A stretch of 64,000 nt of DNA. It comes from Paraspadella gotoi. Taxonomy: Eukaryota; Animalia; Chaetognatha. Below the pieces are notes generated by a model. The model did no database searches. It saw only the letters and a list, made by a program, of their open reading frames with translations, and had not been told where the DNA came from. This document shows, in pieces, positions 14,344-63,800 of the stretch; the first letter of the stretch is position 1; each line of letters begins with the position of its first letter. The stretch is from the NCBI GenBank assembly GCA_051294375.1, contig CM119263.1:20612115-20676114 (forward strand). The letters run 5' to 3'. Made by a program: the position numbers and the translations under genes.

Positions 14344-17300
14344 TTAGGAGAGGATCGAGTCGCGGCGACTCCTCACTTGAGACATGTTGTTGCGAATTTC
14401 GTTGAGAGCGTCGAGCCTGGGGTCCCCGTGTGGCAGAGGCCTGATGCCCATATCCTCGGAAAAGTGAAGTAAAAGGCTTTGAACCGTGTTGAGACGTTCT
14501 CGCAAGGACTTTCCACTCAACAACCCTGAAAAGAAAATACGAGAGTTGAATGATTAACAAAAAACTCAACCACGAGTCTCACTGAATTGGATGAGCTGAT
14601 CGATGGGCAAGACAGCTATCGCCCACCAAATCCACGGTGGCCCCTGAGGTTGGGCCTGAAAGTCTCCCATGGTGCGCTGAGGAAACTGGCCAAAGTGGCT
14701 GGTAATTCGGTGCTGCTTTGATGACGGTAAACTCGTGAACCAATGACGCGCCATGTCGTAAACGCGTCGCTCCATAGTCGTGAGAGCTGAAGAGAGAAAC
14801 GAGAATTGACATTAGAAAAGGGAAAGGGAAAAAGGAAAGATGGTTAAACGGAGGACGCGTACTTTCAACCGCAGCGGGTTCTGTCTCCGGTTCGTCGCGA
14901 AGGAACTCGACTTTGGCCGTGTTGTACCCTTCCCTCATCCCGCGAGACAAGACTTTAAAGCGACGCTCGCCAATTGTGTTGACCACGGAGCGACCGTCGG
15001 GAAAATAAGAGACGTCCTGAGTGAAAGATGAGATCGTTAAAAAATGCTTTTTTGGGCGAAGAAGAGCGGAAATGAGAAACGCACTTGAATTTCCAATATG
15101 GTGCCGTAGTTAGCGAACCCGCCGGGATTGTTGTAAAGTCCCAGGCACATGCCAAACTGCCTGGTTCCGGATTCCATCGCCTGACGAACCTGAAGTCGGA
15201 AAGGAATATCGAAATCAGCTTCATCATTTAATGTTGCACCGAGCGAGACTGTAAAAATACCATGAGACGATACCGAGGCTCGAAAACGTGAAGGGGGCAA
15301 GTGATTGTCGGAAAAGCGAGCGTGCAGACAAAGATGGGAATTTCAGTGTCAGCACCTGAACCCATTCTGAAGCACAAATAGGAACAAAAGTGAATGTACG
15401 ACAATTGCTAGTGTCATACTGAAAATGACGAAATTCGTCTGTCATTAAACCATAGACAACATCGTCTCTTAACTTAGGTTAACTCACTTGGCAATGTCCT
15501 CCATTTCGTCCTCGTGAATCTTCTTTCTCTCTTCATAGGCCTGAAACATGAATTCCTTGACAAGCCGTTCGAGAAGGCGGGTCGGGGCTCCTTGACGCTC
15601 GCGTAGATAGTCGGCCAGATCTTGCTTGCAGAGAGGACACTTGACCGAATGGTCCGTCACCCGATCGAGGCATCCGCGACAAAAAGTGTGACCGCAAGAG
15701 GTCGTAATCTGCAGGTCAAAAATGGTAACATGGTGGTTAGCTTTATGACAAGATTAGCTCAACGAGTTGTCTCCTACCGGTTCCCAAAAGATTCTCAGGC
15801 AGAGGGAGCATTCGTAATCTTCTCTCTCCAGCTTGGAAATATCGAATTTTCTTTTGCGAGCCGTCATTTCTAGGGTTTCGGAAGCTGAAAAGCGCAAGAA
15901 GAAAGCCGTTTCCGTTACCAGTATTGTATTGGTGCCAGAGGCAAGTCATTTGCCTCCCAACCCAAAGGTCAGGGGTTCTAGCCCGGTGGTCGCCTAGCAG
16001 TTATTAGGGACGGGGTGCTTAACCCGCCTGTAACACGGTGTAAGAGCCTCATCCGAAGCTCAGGGACTGATTATATTGAACGGTTCTGTCATTAACTCAT
16101 AACAATAATTACTAAGGCGTAGTAAAATTTCTTAATTAAAATTCTAAAAGTGAGGAACGAACAACATTATATTAATGAACATTTATGTAATAAAAAAATT
16201 TATAATAAATTTTACAATTTAGGCAGTAGGCCATATTTATACTAGTACTAAACCAATAAATGTTAAAATTTCAAAACAGTTTTTTCTAAGATTTTTTTGC
16301 AGATTTGGATTCGTCATAAAAAGTTGATAAAAAGAAATATAACTCTTTTTAAAAAATTCCTTCATTAAGTGGGTCAAAAATTTGAAAAAGCTATATTTTA
16401 AACTGAAAATTAACTTTATATATATTAAATATAGTTTTTTTAATTTTTAACCCATTTAATGAAAGAATTTTTAAAAATGATTTAAATGATAAAAGAAAAT
16501 TCTTTTATCAGCTTTTGACGAGGAATTCAAATCTGCAATCAAAATTAAGAAAAGCCTATTTTGAAATTTTTCGATTTTATAAGGATAGTACTATATATAA
16601 ATATAACCTACTGCGAAAATTAAAAAACATAAAATTAATTTTTTTTACAAATTAATGTTCACTGATGGTATGATGTTCATAATTGACTTTTAGAATTTTC
16701 GTATGTAACTTTCACTACGCCTTAATAATTACTGTTTCTTCAATCGTTTAATTTTTTTTAGAAAGCAAACAAAATTTAGCGTGCAATCAAATAAACGAGA
16801 AAAAAAATAAACATGCAATATCTAGCAATTAAGAAAAATCATTAAGAGCAGGGCAAACGTTAAATCACTACAGAAGGGTAAAGAGATACAATTAATACAC
16901 CTGTAGAAAAAACACGGCACCTTATAACAGACGCATTATTAAAATATTTATAAAATATAAGTTTTATGGCGAATCCTAAATTCGCCTCCCGTACAGCCTA
17001 GTAAAACTCAGCATGTCCCATTGACTTGGTCAGCTAAGTACTCGTTCACCAACCGTGAGTTCCGGGTTCAATTCCCTCACGGTCACGCTGGTTAAAGTGA
17101 TGGTGTCGGCATAAACACGCCAGTGACATGGGGTGGTCACTAGTGTGGAATGATGAAAAGATTGAGTGATTGAACATTATTTTTTTACTGCCTATGGACA
17201 TATAATTAATGAATTTTAAATCCTTTTAAAAATCTTTTTAGCATAACAGAATAGTAAATTCAATTATTTATGTAGGAATATCCTTATAAAATCATTAAAT

Positions 17301-60870: not shown

Positions 60871-63800
60871 AGGGTAGGTACCGGGTTGGGATTGAACCCG
60901 GTACCAAGTGGTCATGAGCTGATGGCTTTACTCAATGAGCCACCGGGTCAGGACTGAAGGTGTCATGCTTATAGGCGGGGTGAACCTAGGCAATGCGAAA
61001 ATTCGAAAATTTGAAAAAAAAAAGTGAGAACAATATAGACGTAGAAAAATGTGACAAGTAGACGAGAGAGAGAGAGAGAGAGAGAGAGAGAGAGAGACAA
61101 CAAAAGCCCCCTTCCTCCTATAAAAGAAAAAATAAAGTTCTGTCAGTTATAATTTCAAGTGCGACCTTTTGAAAAAATGATATAATTATTTGACACGGAA
61201 TTCTAATTTCTCCAGAGAAAGTTGGTGGGGGCAAGGGGGAGGCAAGAGGGAAAGGAAGCGGTTAACTTATGATTTACGATCAGCGGCCAGAGTTAGTAGC
61301 CTCTCTCGCTAACAACGAAGTTAACTACGCTGAAGTTTGCTAATGTGAGACCAGAGAGAAGACTTTGTTAAATTTGAAATGAAATCGGATTAAAAAAAAA
61401 AAACTTCTTAATGAAAAATCTTTGTCATTGTTTTTGTTTCGTTAGTAATCTGTAAAGCAACATATAATTTTTATATAAGGTGTGATAATAACAACTTTGC
61501 CTTCTTTCGGTCATACGTTAACAAAATGTACTTTACCGAGACATAAATAAATATTTTTACTTTTAAGTACTTGCTCGTAAAAGCTACGCTTTATGTTCTC
61601 AATTTTTACTTTTTTTCTTTCACCTTAGATTAAAACTAACTCGAACCAAATGACAACAACGACGACGTTTTTATTGACAGTTGGCGGTTACGATATTTCT
61701 GCCACCGTCGTGGTCGTCGTCGTCGTCGTTGTCGTTGTCGTCAACCACAATCGGTATCACCGTCGACTTGTGACCCCTCTCGGATCTGACCCTCGATTCC
61801 TGAACCCCGAATTCCTCAGTGAAAACTATCTCCTCTTTCTATCTTCGTCCTTAAGTTTCCCCCTTCCTCTTTCCCCTTTTCCCTTCCCCTATCCCCTTCT
61901 TTTTTCCCCTTTTTCCAGTCCGACCTAATTTTTGACTCGCGTCGAAATAGTCCCGATGTTCTCAGACTCGTCAATCAGGCTCGTGAAAGAACCCCCTCCT
62001 CGACCTAGCGGAGAGGGAGAAGACGTCGGGAGAGAAACTGGACTAAAGACCGGGACCGCTGGCGCCGTAAAGTTTATAAGTTTCTTATCCACTTGGAGTC
62101 TTGATATTTAATGGTACCTTAATAAAATAATCAAAGCATATAGATATTCATACAATTCAATCAATGAAATACTAACTAATTAAAGAAGCAATAGTAAATA
62201 AACAAATAAATCCACAAAGAATCCACTAAGTGTCCATTAAGCATCCACAAACGTTTATTATTTTAGAGAAGAGTCCCGTTTCAGAGCAGAATCTGGAATG
62301 ATCGCAAAAGAGAGAAAGAGACAAACGTCGATATCTCCTATATAAAAGAGCATCTGAGTTGTAGATATTCGTCTGGACTTTACCCTCGGCGGTGACGTTG
62401 TACGGTCCCCCACTCCACCCCCCCCCCACAGCTTGAATTATTTACTTTCTTTAAACAAAGTCTCAATAATTATCTTTAAGTGATCTTCATTTAATCCCTA
62501 TATCCTCTTCCTTCCCTCTTACTTTCCCTTCATTGTGTCTCGTCACTTCGAGATTCTATCCTTCACTTCACACATGTCACTTTTCACTTCTTACTTCTCA
62601 CTTCTCACTACTCACTTCCTGTTCCTCATTTGTCACTCATCGGCCCGCGTTGACGAAGTTTTGAAATAAATAAGATTAATTTAATTTAAATTATTTTTTT
62701 ATGCTTTTGTTTGTATATTTTTTTCATCAACTTTCATTTTTTCCCCTTTATTCTCTATTTTTTTGACTAGTGATGAAATTTGATCTTTTTTAATTTGAGA
62801 GCAATTTTTTTCTTGAGAGTTTGACAGGTGAAGTCAACGAAAAAATAAATTACTAAATTCTGAAAATTTGGAAAAAAATAAAAGACTCGTTCATACTCAT
62901 AGTATTTCAAATAATTTCTTTCGTTTCCATTCATATGCGTACGATAAACTTTGTAAAAAAATTCTTCATCCATGAAACCCAAAAAATTCGGGGAAAAAAC
63001 CGAAAGGATTTCCGTTGTAATTGCCGTATCCGTATTGATTTTGTAGATACTGTACGAAAAAAATATTTTTGTTATAATTTAGGATCAAAACATATCTGGA
63101 CCGGAAGCACAGAGCCGAAGGGGAAGCCAATCATTGCAAAAAGCAAGCAAAGACAAACGAGGTTGTTCATCGTGAACGAGCGAAAAAAAAATCAAATTCT
63201 TGAAATAAAAATCGACACAAATACCGTTCGTCATAAACAAAAAAGGTCAATGCGATTGAATGCGATTTTCAAACTAATAATCGCAAACATCGCGATGACG
63301 AATGACGAGTCTTACAATACAATAGTAATAGTGAATAGTCTTTTTTTCCTAGTCTTTTTTTTTATCGCTTCTCAAACCCTCGGCTCCACACCTGTGATCC
63401 GTCGACCACTCCCGTGCCCCCAGCGTCGCTCCTATACGAGTAAAAAATACTCCAGCTGATCAAGTTTCAAAACTATTTTAAGACCAGAAACGTTTTATTT
63501 TGAGCCTTCGCAGGAATTTTTTTCCTCCTTTGGAGATTCTTTATTTATAAATAATCGATGAACGCGAATCGAGGAATTATTTAACTTTTAGAAATGCTAT
63601 CTCAGGAAGTCTATGTCTAATCGAATTAAAAAAGAATAGGGAGAGGGGGAAAACATTGGGGATTTGTGGAGGGAAAAGGCGATAACATTTATTTTCAAAC
63701 CGATGCGTAAAATGACAATCGAACAGATTATGACCCACAGTCCCACAGTCCCACACTCAATACATACAAACGAAGCGAAGATACGATTCACCGCTCTCCG

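Follow-up and report, generated by a model that had tools for sequence, protein, structure and literature searches.

Putative type-P5 twister ribozyme cores in small LTR-like repeats of the chaetognath Paraspadella gotoi

Introduction

We analyzed a 64,000-nucleotide stretch of DNA (below, the window) from the chaetognath Paraspadella gotoi (assembly GCA_051294375.1, contig CM119263.1, positions 20,612,115 to 20,676,114 of the forward strand; all coordinates given here count from its first letter). Families of small repeats in this window, most of them headed by a transfer RNA (tRNA)-like segment, contain a motif that resembles a circularly permuted (type-P5) twister ribozyme. Conserved nucleotides and covarying pairs in both pseudoknots support the assignment of a putative type-P5 twister core to five repeat families, which we name B, C, D, E and F. 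In the model that we prefer, the repeats belong to animal long terminal repeat (LTR) retrozymes driven by RNA polymerase III (Pol III), whose twisters would cut as strand-swapped pairs and whose unit RNA would circularize. We assign this model as a whole a probability of about one half.

Results and discussion

Twister cores in five repeat families

The order P5-AA-P2'-GA-NNN-[6 nt]-UAA-P2-GC-P3-P4-U-NNN-AAGC-P4'-P5' was found at five sites in families B and E. The original prediction, made from the same window, had described this order in four families; it holds in B and E, whereas the core of C is split by a 638-bp insert and that of D is deleted in part. All core nucleotides (GA, UAA, GC, and U-NNN-AAGC) are kept in B, E, and the split C. 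A descriptor of the P5 twister gave four matches in the window, each behind a tRNA-like head, whereas 40 block-wise dinucleotide shuffles averaged 0.1; point changes in P4 hid the family B copy at 15997 from the descriptor. In each of the seven tRNA-like heads (7/7), the word GA-NNN-[6-8]-TAA begins 23-28 nt past the B box.

A covariance model was built from the three B cores only, with the pseudoknots T1 and T2 kept outside the model. It recovered both E cores, at 32.6 and 29.4 bits, and one further core, F, at 28.6 bits, while the opposite-strand shadows of B reached 15.8 and 14.9 bits and the top unrelated match 9.9 bits. This custom model, applied here to the window, was one of the checks proposed with the original prediction, which had not listed F; its count of four families holds for those behind a tRNA-like head, and F brings the total to five.

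The pseudoknot triplets co-vary as had been claimed. T1 pairs CGG with CCG in B, GGA with UCC in E, and UGG with CCA in F, and the TGG/CCA version is also present in C. The GC/GC pairs of T2 are replaced in F by AC/GU, a compensated change. Across six aligned cores, 93% of 172 cells are paired, compared to 32-51% in slid controls; the values are 88.9% for P2, 93.3% for P4, and 88.9% for P5, and T1 and T2 are both 100% paired, with double changes at two of three T1 pairs and one of two T2 pairs. These six cores represent three lineages, so the figures are not a genome-wide covariation test. In B and E, P2 has a bulge and only three pairs, not four; in C it forms two out of four pairs.

We used the Rfam consensus and phage twisters as standards of comparison for the core. 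With the type-P5 twisters (Rfam RF02684; PMC5408937) the repeats share the element order, the GA, UAA, GC, and U-NNN-AAGC nucleotides, and both pseudoknots, and these core features match the definition of the twister class (PMC5408937; here and below, cited sources are represented by the portions of their text and supplements that were available). They differ from the type-P5 twisters in a 6-8-nt self-complementary P1, a three-pair bulged P2 (in B and E), and scores under the Rfam threshold. On the conserved nucleotides and the covariation of both pseudoknots, the type-P5 assignment stands, and we consider it very probable that the core is a homologue of the twister.

Several observations weigh against this assignment. 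The covariation is drawn from three to five lineages in a single window. The Rfam Twister-P5 search advised by the original prediction did not bear it out: RF02684, a model that is without P3 and expects a long P1, scored family E at 16.8 bits (E value of 0.81) against a gathering score of 37.6 and did not match family B, and among the 11 weak matches of Rfam models in the whole window there was neither a twister nor a tRNA. Conversely, phage P5 twisters score at most 13.4 bits with the B model. The near-invariant G-C pair closing the L4 loop is A-U in B, and in F the conserved GC of T2 has become AC and the first pair of P2 is mismatched. In favor of the assignment, the natural twisters tested elsewhere withstand imperfect P1, P2, and P4 and are less tolerant of changes in the pseudoknots and catalytic positions, the forms studied being of type P1 (PMC11662667). 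A second model found the halves of C at an E value of about 1 only, and D was not among its matches.

A pattern of the B/E type had no matches in viral contigs. It had three in metagenome contigs, all of them without the GA/T1 half and apparently due to chance in bacterial coding DNA. One 5.5-kb viral contig (L051) contains four P5 twisters about 570 bp apart, and a fifth lies in contig L052.

We also considered that the region behind the head is a second, degenerate tRNA-like cloverleaf, in which a T-arm-like hairpin matches the twister by coincidence. The minimum fold of the monomer is indeed predicted to be a four-way junction, and in C and E the L4 hairpin scores like a B box. Yet a cloverleaf does not account for an 8-nt loop U-NNN-AAG(C/U) whose triplet is complementary, in three versions, to the bases that follow GA, nor for the covariation of T2 in F, and neither ARAGORN nor Rfam reports a tRNA in the window. 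We regard such a coincidence as extremely improbable. The tRNA-like character of the heads themselves lies in their A and B boxes only; to that extent the tRNA heads of the original prediction stand, while ARAGORN identified no tRNA genes.

Structure of the elements and their LTR status

Family E provides a two-LTR element (on the reverse strand), a non-coding sequence of 680 bp arranged as LTR, internal region, and LTR, with the two LTRs 96% alike. The 5' LTR (60721..60996, 276 bp, first 9 bases missing) has TATAAG at 60973, a head from 60949 with its B box at 60898, and a twister at 60871-60791 with a predicted cut after U60848. The internal region (60600..60720, 121 bp) opens at 60719 with a sequence resembling a primer-binding site (PBS), 9 of 10 bases of which agree with the tRNA-Trp PBS of Helenus-2_SyJa (PMC10886601, supplement), and closes with a purine run, GGGGGGCA, at 60607-60600, which resembles a polypurine tract (PPT). 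The 3' LTR (60317..60599, 283 bp) has TG...CA ends, a head from 60543, and a twister at 60466-60386 with the P1 CGGCCG and a predicted cut at 60443/60442. A reading of E as a Penelope-type tandem was set aside in view of the TG...CA ends and the PBS-like/PPT-like spacer.

Family B is represented by three LTR-like copies. Copy 2 (46925..47157, reverse strand) is a complete, 233-bp solo-LTR-like element with TA...CA ends and a GGGG target duplication; its twister core occupies 46976..47051, with a predicted cut after U47027. Copy 3 (47270..47491, reverse strand) is solo-LTR-like, is flanked by an AAAT duplication, and has lost 11-12 nt at the head start. Its core (47321..47396) has the P1 GGCGCT, a predicted cut at 47372/47371, and the family-majority letters at the three positions where copy 2 differs. 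Both cut positions named in the original prediction, 47372/47371 and 60443/60442, thus fall where it had placed them from sequence. Copy 1 (15928..16742, forward strand) is 5'-truncated, and an inserted miniature inverted-repeat transposable element (MITE; 16113..16724, with an 8-bp target duplication), which we take to be hAT-like, has shifted its last 10 bases to 16733-16742. In its twister-P5 core (15996..16071, predicted cut after U16020), P2, P3, and P4 are decayed.

A search of sequencing runs listed nine from three studies, none of them an RNA run, a result that carries no information on expression. Contigs from sequencing runs, mapped for family B only, confirm the ends of copy 2. In all four runs (4/4) contigs end sharply at 46925 and 47157, the flanks beyond being unrelated and AT-rich, with 50-202 and 24-124 records per run for the two breaks. 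A joint that skips 237 bases (233 + 4, the element and one duplication) is present in two of the four runs, the letters between its sides being marked as not known. The insertion (46920-47158) is thus polymorphic, with the empty-site form in runs X5 and X9. The majority form of B in the contigs has an intact B box. Summed contig depth on B is about 1-5 million, compared to 200-3,400 in the flanks (runs X1 and X2), a ratio that is not a copy number. The invariance of the B core in these contigs may reflect a young family rather than selection. Two other classes were rejected for B: a Helitron or Helentron, considered for its 5' hairpin and 9-bp internal inverted repeat, on account of duplications of 4 bp and an empty-site allele, and a DNA transposon for want of a terminal inverted repeat.

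The family C element (16965..17860, forward strand) is solo-LTR-like, measures 256 bp without its insert, has TATGG...CCATA ends, and is flanked by a GTTT duplication. Its head (17015..17083, B box 17065-17075) is followed by the 5' half of a twister (17084..17137), with GA-TGG at 17099, a self-complementary 8-nt P1, TAA at 17112, GC, and the start of P3. Here a MITE (17138..17775, a 638-bp inverted repeat bounded by CACTAG and flanked by the 2-bp duplication GT), presumably CACTA/EnSpm-like, is inserted in P3; the 3' half (17776..17810) resumes with the end of P3, P4, the L4 loop TCCAAAGC at 17787, and P5'. Joined, the two halves would make up a twister in which P2 is weak. At their starts, families B (47471-47491) and C (16965-16986) share TATGG and, directly after it, a short hairpin whose sequence differs between the two.

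In family D (forward strand), a head (44143..44209, B box 44190-44200) precedes a twister remnant (44210..44257) that contains P5, GA-TGG at 44224, the P1 ACCGGG, TAA at 44235, an internal deletion, and P5'. GC and P3 are missing from the remnant, as is P4 on its 5' side, and TAA-CCA jumps directly to AAGT at the end of L4; the gap is apparently a deletion between two CCA words. Neither the C nor the D twister can be active in its present form. A PBS-like 12-mer 3' of D (44291..44302) equals the tRNA-Ser(GCT)-type PBS of the oyster elements Helenus-3/6_PiIm and is preceded by TC, not TG. A search for the ends of D gave one weak candidate and defined none. The family F core (45401..45461, reverse strand) has GA-TGG at 45448, the palindromic P1 AGGCCT, TAA at 45437, no P3, and AC/GT in T2. 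For its ends we obtained 10 AT-rich chance candidates only, and no clear tRNA-like head was found. Inverted repeat arms at 44857-45225 and 45671-46021 enclose this core.

These structures bear on two possible origins of the repeats. One, named in the original prediction, is that of tRNA-headed short interspersed nuclear elements (SINEs); the twister would then be a body domain, copied by a long interspersed nuclear element (LINE). The A/B-box heads, a length of about 230-280 bp, the very high copy number, and the absence of defined LTR ends in D and F would suit SINEs. The SINE reading fails because the heads are internal (35-55 nt inside the element in B, C, and E, with GGTTC B boxes), both ends of B, C, and E are fixed with CA/TA at the 3' end, an A-rich or tandem tail is absent, the target duplications are 4 bp long (GGGG, AAAT, and GTTT for the second and third copies of B and for C, respectively), and E has the LTR, PBS-like, PPT-like, LTR order. 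For B, C, and E it is largely refuted, and overall we find it very unlikely. The repeats are likely the LTRs of miniature non-autonomous LTR retrotransposons similar to Helenus, a group of miniature retrotransposons with terminal repeats (TRIMs), as far as can be judged from their ends and layout, and we hold an LTR origin to be highly likely. The name 'twister retrozyme', also put forward in the original prediction, fits better than SINE, provided that the retrozyme is of the LTR type.

Some points weaken the LTR reading. An internal region is seen in E only, and E itself is without a target duplication and matches the PBS at 9 of 10 bases. The ends of D and F are undefined, and F is without a clear head. 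B and C occur in the window as single-LTR copies, whose LTR status is suggested by their ends. No target duplication was found for the first copy of B or for D, E, and F.

Short P1 and predicted folds

The P1 segment is GGCGCT in the B majority, CGGCCG or CGGCCT in E, ACCGGG in D, TGTCGGCA in C, and AGGCCT in F. In all five families (5/5) it is 6-8 nt long and self-complementary, with letters that differ between families. Among the matches listed for phages, 40 of the 130 distinct twister matches are of the P5 type, and P1 measures 16-35 nt in 39 of these 40. P1 is here no intramolecular hairpin of the type-P5 kind; its inner pairs cannot form within a hairpin. In B (majority form), C, D, and E, the four central bases of P1 form a self-complementary word, with a joint chance of 0.005 when the letters of each segment are permuted. 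P1 of F is a perfect palindrome (chance 0.13), and F was discovered after the palindrome idea had been noted.

In B, C, E, and F, the predicted minimum fold of the monomer contains a blocking hairpin that covers P1 and UAA. A fold compatible with the twister costs 6.3-10 kcal/mol more than this minimum in the second and third copies of B and in C, E, and F, and 18.3 kcal/mol more in the decayed first copy of B; these folding energies, like those below, leave out pseudoknots and tertiary contacts. For the P5 twisters of phages, the median of the same gap is 2.15 kcal/mol, and 2 of 44 reach 6.3 among the matches listed. A strand-swapped dimer would be fully nested, and its predicted energy per ribozyme, relative to two monomers, is 1.9 kcal/mol for the third copy of B, 1.8 and 4.4 for E, and -0.5 for C. 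We infer that the short P1 is a self-complementary dimer element, a reading that suits it better than that of a dispensable stub. The 'minimal P1' of the original prediction is thus correct as to length and better understood as a site of dimerization.

Against a strand-swapped pair stand the unconstrained dimers, whose predicted stability exceeds that of the swapped form by 13-19 kcal/mol, and the full E transcript, in which the swapped form is 8.5 kcal/mol per ribozyme above the minimum. The palindrome is lost in the second copy of B through a minority letter, and the minority letters of the first and second copies weaken or break it. P1 is dispensable in other twisters (PMC5408937), so a dimer is perhaps not needed. 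In view of these energies, the dimer step draws mainly on the palindromes and on the precedent of hammerheads (PMC7229834).

These same folds would also suit a motif that, although derived from a twister, now served mainly as a dimerization or packaging signal, with the blocking hairpin displaying a palindromic kissing loop and with negligible cutting. In spite of different letters, B, C, E, and F all have this hairpin in their predicted minimum, the palindrome is exposed in the hairpin loop in B, D, and F, and unconstrained dimers outdo the swapped twister. In E, however, the palindrome is in the stem and not in the loop. Moreover, covariation is seen in both T1 and T2, and families with diverged stems retain GA, UAA, and the bases of L4; a kissing hairpin needs none of these features. 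We consider a mainly signaling role distinctly unlikely, and cleavage of RNA by the core in some form probable.

Proposed life cycle

The preferred model, in which Pol III-driven LTR retrozymes are processed by paired twisters, builds on the layout, ends, core sequence, covariation, and palindromes that we observe in this DNA. Pol III would start at the tRNA-like head of the 5' LTR and read into the 3' LTR. The head strand contains no run of four T (T4) in 1,039 unique bases, where 2.6 would be expected (P 0.06), so that Pol III, having started at the 5' head, could read on past the second twister. A single twister is predicted to be blocked by the hairpin, which buries the T1 triplet or pairs P1 with the bases after UAA. 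When two copies meet, their self-complementary 6-8-nt P1 segments would pair. Each active site would combine one copy's 5' half with the other's 3' half, and the RNA would be cut at the two U^A bonds. In E, the two cuts would release a 405-nt unit RNA, which would circularize. Such a unit is without a terminal repeat, so ordinary strand transfer would be impossible, while copying as a circle would be possible, as proposed for plant retrozymes (PMC4918200). Reverse transcription would be primed by a tRNA at the PBS and proceed round the circle, with second priming at the PPT, and the integrase of a Gypsy-type helper would insert full elements and solo LTRs.

Pol III transcription, cleavage, the circle, and the Gypsy helper are steps that the sequence suggests, and the hairpin and the swapped dimer are predicted folds. 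The absence of T4 runs is no more than suggestive at P 0.06.

A linear cycle was considered for Helenus-like TRIMs with an active twister. In that case the twister would replace the Pol III terminator, mainly the copy in the 3' LTR would cut and set the 3' end of the RNA, and the 5' copy would stay blocked, preserving the terminal repeat for strand transfer. Such a cycle agrees with the T-rich ends that most animal Helenus LTRs show, by eye, soon after the head (PMC10886601), in place of which the present repeats have a twister and no T4 runs; with a blocking hairpin that would slow cleavage; and with the dispensability of P1 (PMC5408937). It leaves five different palindromes without explanation, and the ribozymes of the two LTRs are near-identical, with nothing obvious that would let one cut and the other not. 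We judge it unlikely.

A broader form of the retrozyme model, in our estimate less probable than not, can be proposed tentatively. The elements would represent a diversified, Pol III-driven class of animal LTR retrozymes with obligate strand-swapped 'double twisters', whose RNA would be cut only in the presence of both LTRs and whose circle would be stable. With the hammerhead seen by eye in two wasp Helenus LTRs (below), ribozyme-bearing Pol III TRIMs would be a wider, overlooked group able to swap ribozyme types.

Comparison with known systems

The TRIMs known as Helenus contain a tRNA-like segment within the LTR; those of animals make 4-bp target duplications, and their helper is presumed to be Gypsy (PMC10886601). 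The repeats described here resemble these TRIMs (TRIMp3; Kojima 2024, PMC10886601) in a size below 1 kb, an A/B-box segment in the LTR, PBS-like and PPT-like sequences (in E), 4-bp duplications, many solo LTRs, several families per genome, and LTRs that in some cases begin with TA. They differ in the twister behind the head and the absence of T4 runs, where most Helenus LTRs end T-rich soon after the head. In the available part of that paper (PMC10886601), the text has no mentions of a twister, and none was seen by eye in the animal consensus sequences. Two LTRs in its supplement DataS1, Helenus-2_SyJa-LTR and Helenus-2_SyUm-LTR from Synergus wasps, show by eye a type III hammerhead 3' of the tRNA-like head, comprising a GUC site, stem I, CUGAUGA, stem II, GAAAC, and complementary loops I and II; the available text is silent on it. 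The PBS of both is of the tRNA-Trp type, which that of family E resembles.

LTR retrozymes have been described mainly from plants, with hammerheads. The plant elements (Cervera 2016, PMC4918200) have a ribozyme in each LTR, a PBS, and a PPT, to which the putative twisters and the PBS-like and PPT-like sequences of E correspond; they share the 4-bp duplications and solo LTRs, and for them a blocked ribozyme fold, a circular template, and a Gypsy helper have been reported or proposed (PMC4918200). Their ribozymes are type III hammerheads, their circles measure 600-800 nt, and the available description includes no tRNA-like head. In contrast, the elements studied here have a twister-P5 core, an invertebrate host, a 405-nt unit, and a tRNA-like head, and are known from DNA only. 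A twister core, with predicted activity, is present in both LTRs of E, and there is no type III hammerhead; the elements would work like an LTR retrozyme and yet are not members of that class as defined.

Animal non-LTR retrozymes (PMC7229834; 10.64898/2026.07.22.740005) would be similar in their small unit RNAs, produced between two ribozymes and joined by RtcB-type ligation, and the amphibian retrozyme hammerheads cut better as dimers (PMC7229834; 10.64898/2026.07.22.740005). They differ in having type I hammerheads, tandem repeats without LTR, PBS, or PPT, longer duplications, and a link to Penelope. The tandem units, type I hammerheads, and long duplications of Penelope-linked retrozymes are absent from our elements. 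The T-variant twisters of Perere-3 in Schistosoma mansoni (PMC8501958) are comparable in their weak or missing P1 and in serving a retrotransposon; they differ in their host, an autonomous non-LTR element (RTE) at whose 5' end they lie, in a P1 completed by flanking DNA, and in the absence of a tRNA head and LTR.

Neither a twister in an LTR nor an animal LTR retrozyme is described in the available parts of the literature searched (including PMC8501958, PMC7761336, PMC11722881, 10.1101/2022.07.19.500677, and 10.64898/2026.07.22.740005), a search whose scope did not extend to subscription papers, Repbase, the original twister paper (Roth 2014), or preprint supplements. The searched literature also contained no natural obligate-dimer twister.

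Genomic context

The window is repeat-rich animal DNA. Its long exons belong to NDUFS2, IFT54/MIP-T3, and an RBM15-like gene, which have few introns and lie at 32523-42438 on the reverse strand; close named protein relatives are absent, those of NDUFS2 reaching 80% identity at best. In a tree built from one gene, with 42 proteins, the host falls outside the arthropod clade and groups with two proteins only.

A broken remnant of a Gypsy-type retrotransposon is present at about 20800-23800 (reverse strand), with RNase H and integrase zinc-finger domains at about 20800-22300. No LTR pair of this remnant was seen within the window, and a comparison of the PBS-like word of family E with the remnant gave no convincing match.

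The MITE in the first copy of B belongs to a family of large, AT-rich palindromic MITEs, with copies at 5-623, 11252-11874, 16113-16724, and 33600-34650. A minisatellite at 4135-5142 (16-bp unit, about 63 units, orientation flip near 4260) is found beside WD40-coding exons. A dispersed repeat family with internal tandem units of 156-178 bp occupies 23995-29065, 35400-36200, and 47950-49600.

Conclusions

The elements join features of Helenus, plant retrozymes, and twisters. As they escape Rfam, similar families may be widely missed. If the proposed model is true, an animal LTR retrozyme that combines a twister with a Pol III promoter of its own would be a design that has arisen again from different parts. 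An obligate-dimer twister would parallel the double hammerhead, and the elements would provide a concrete job for twisters, whose eukaryotic roles mostly lack assignment.

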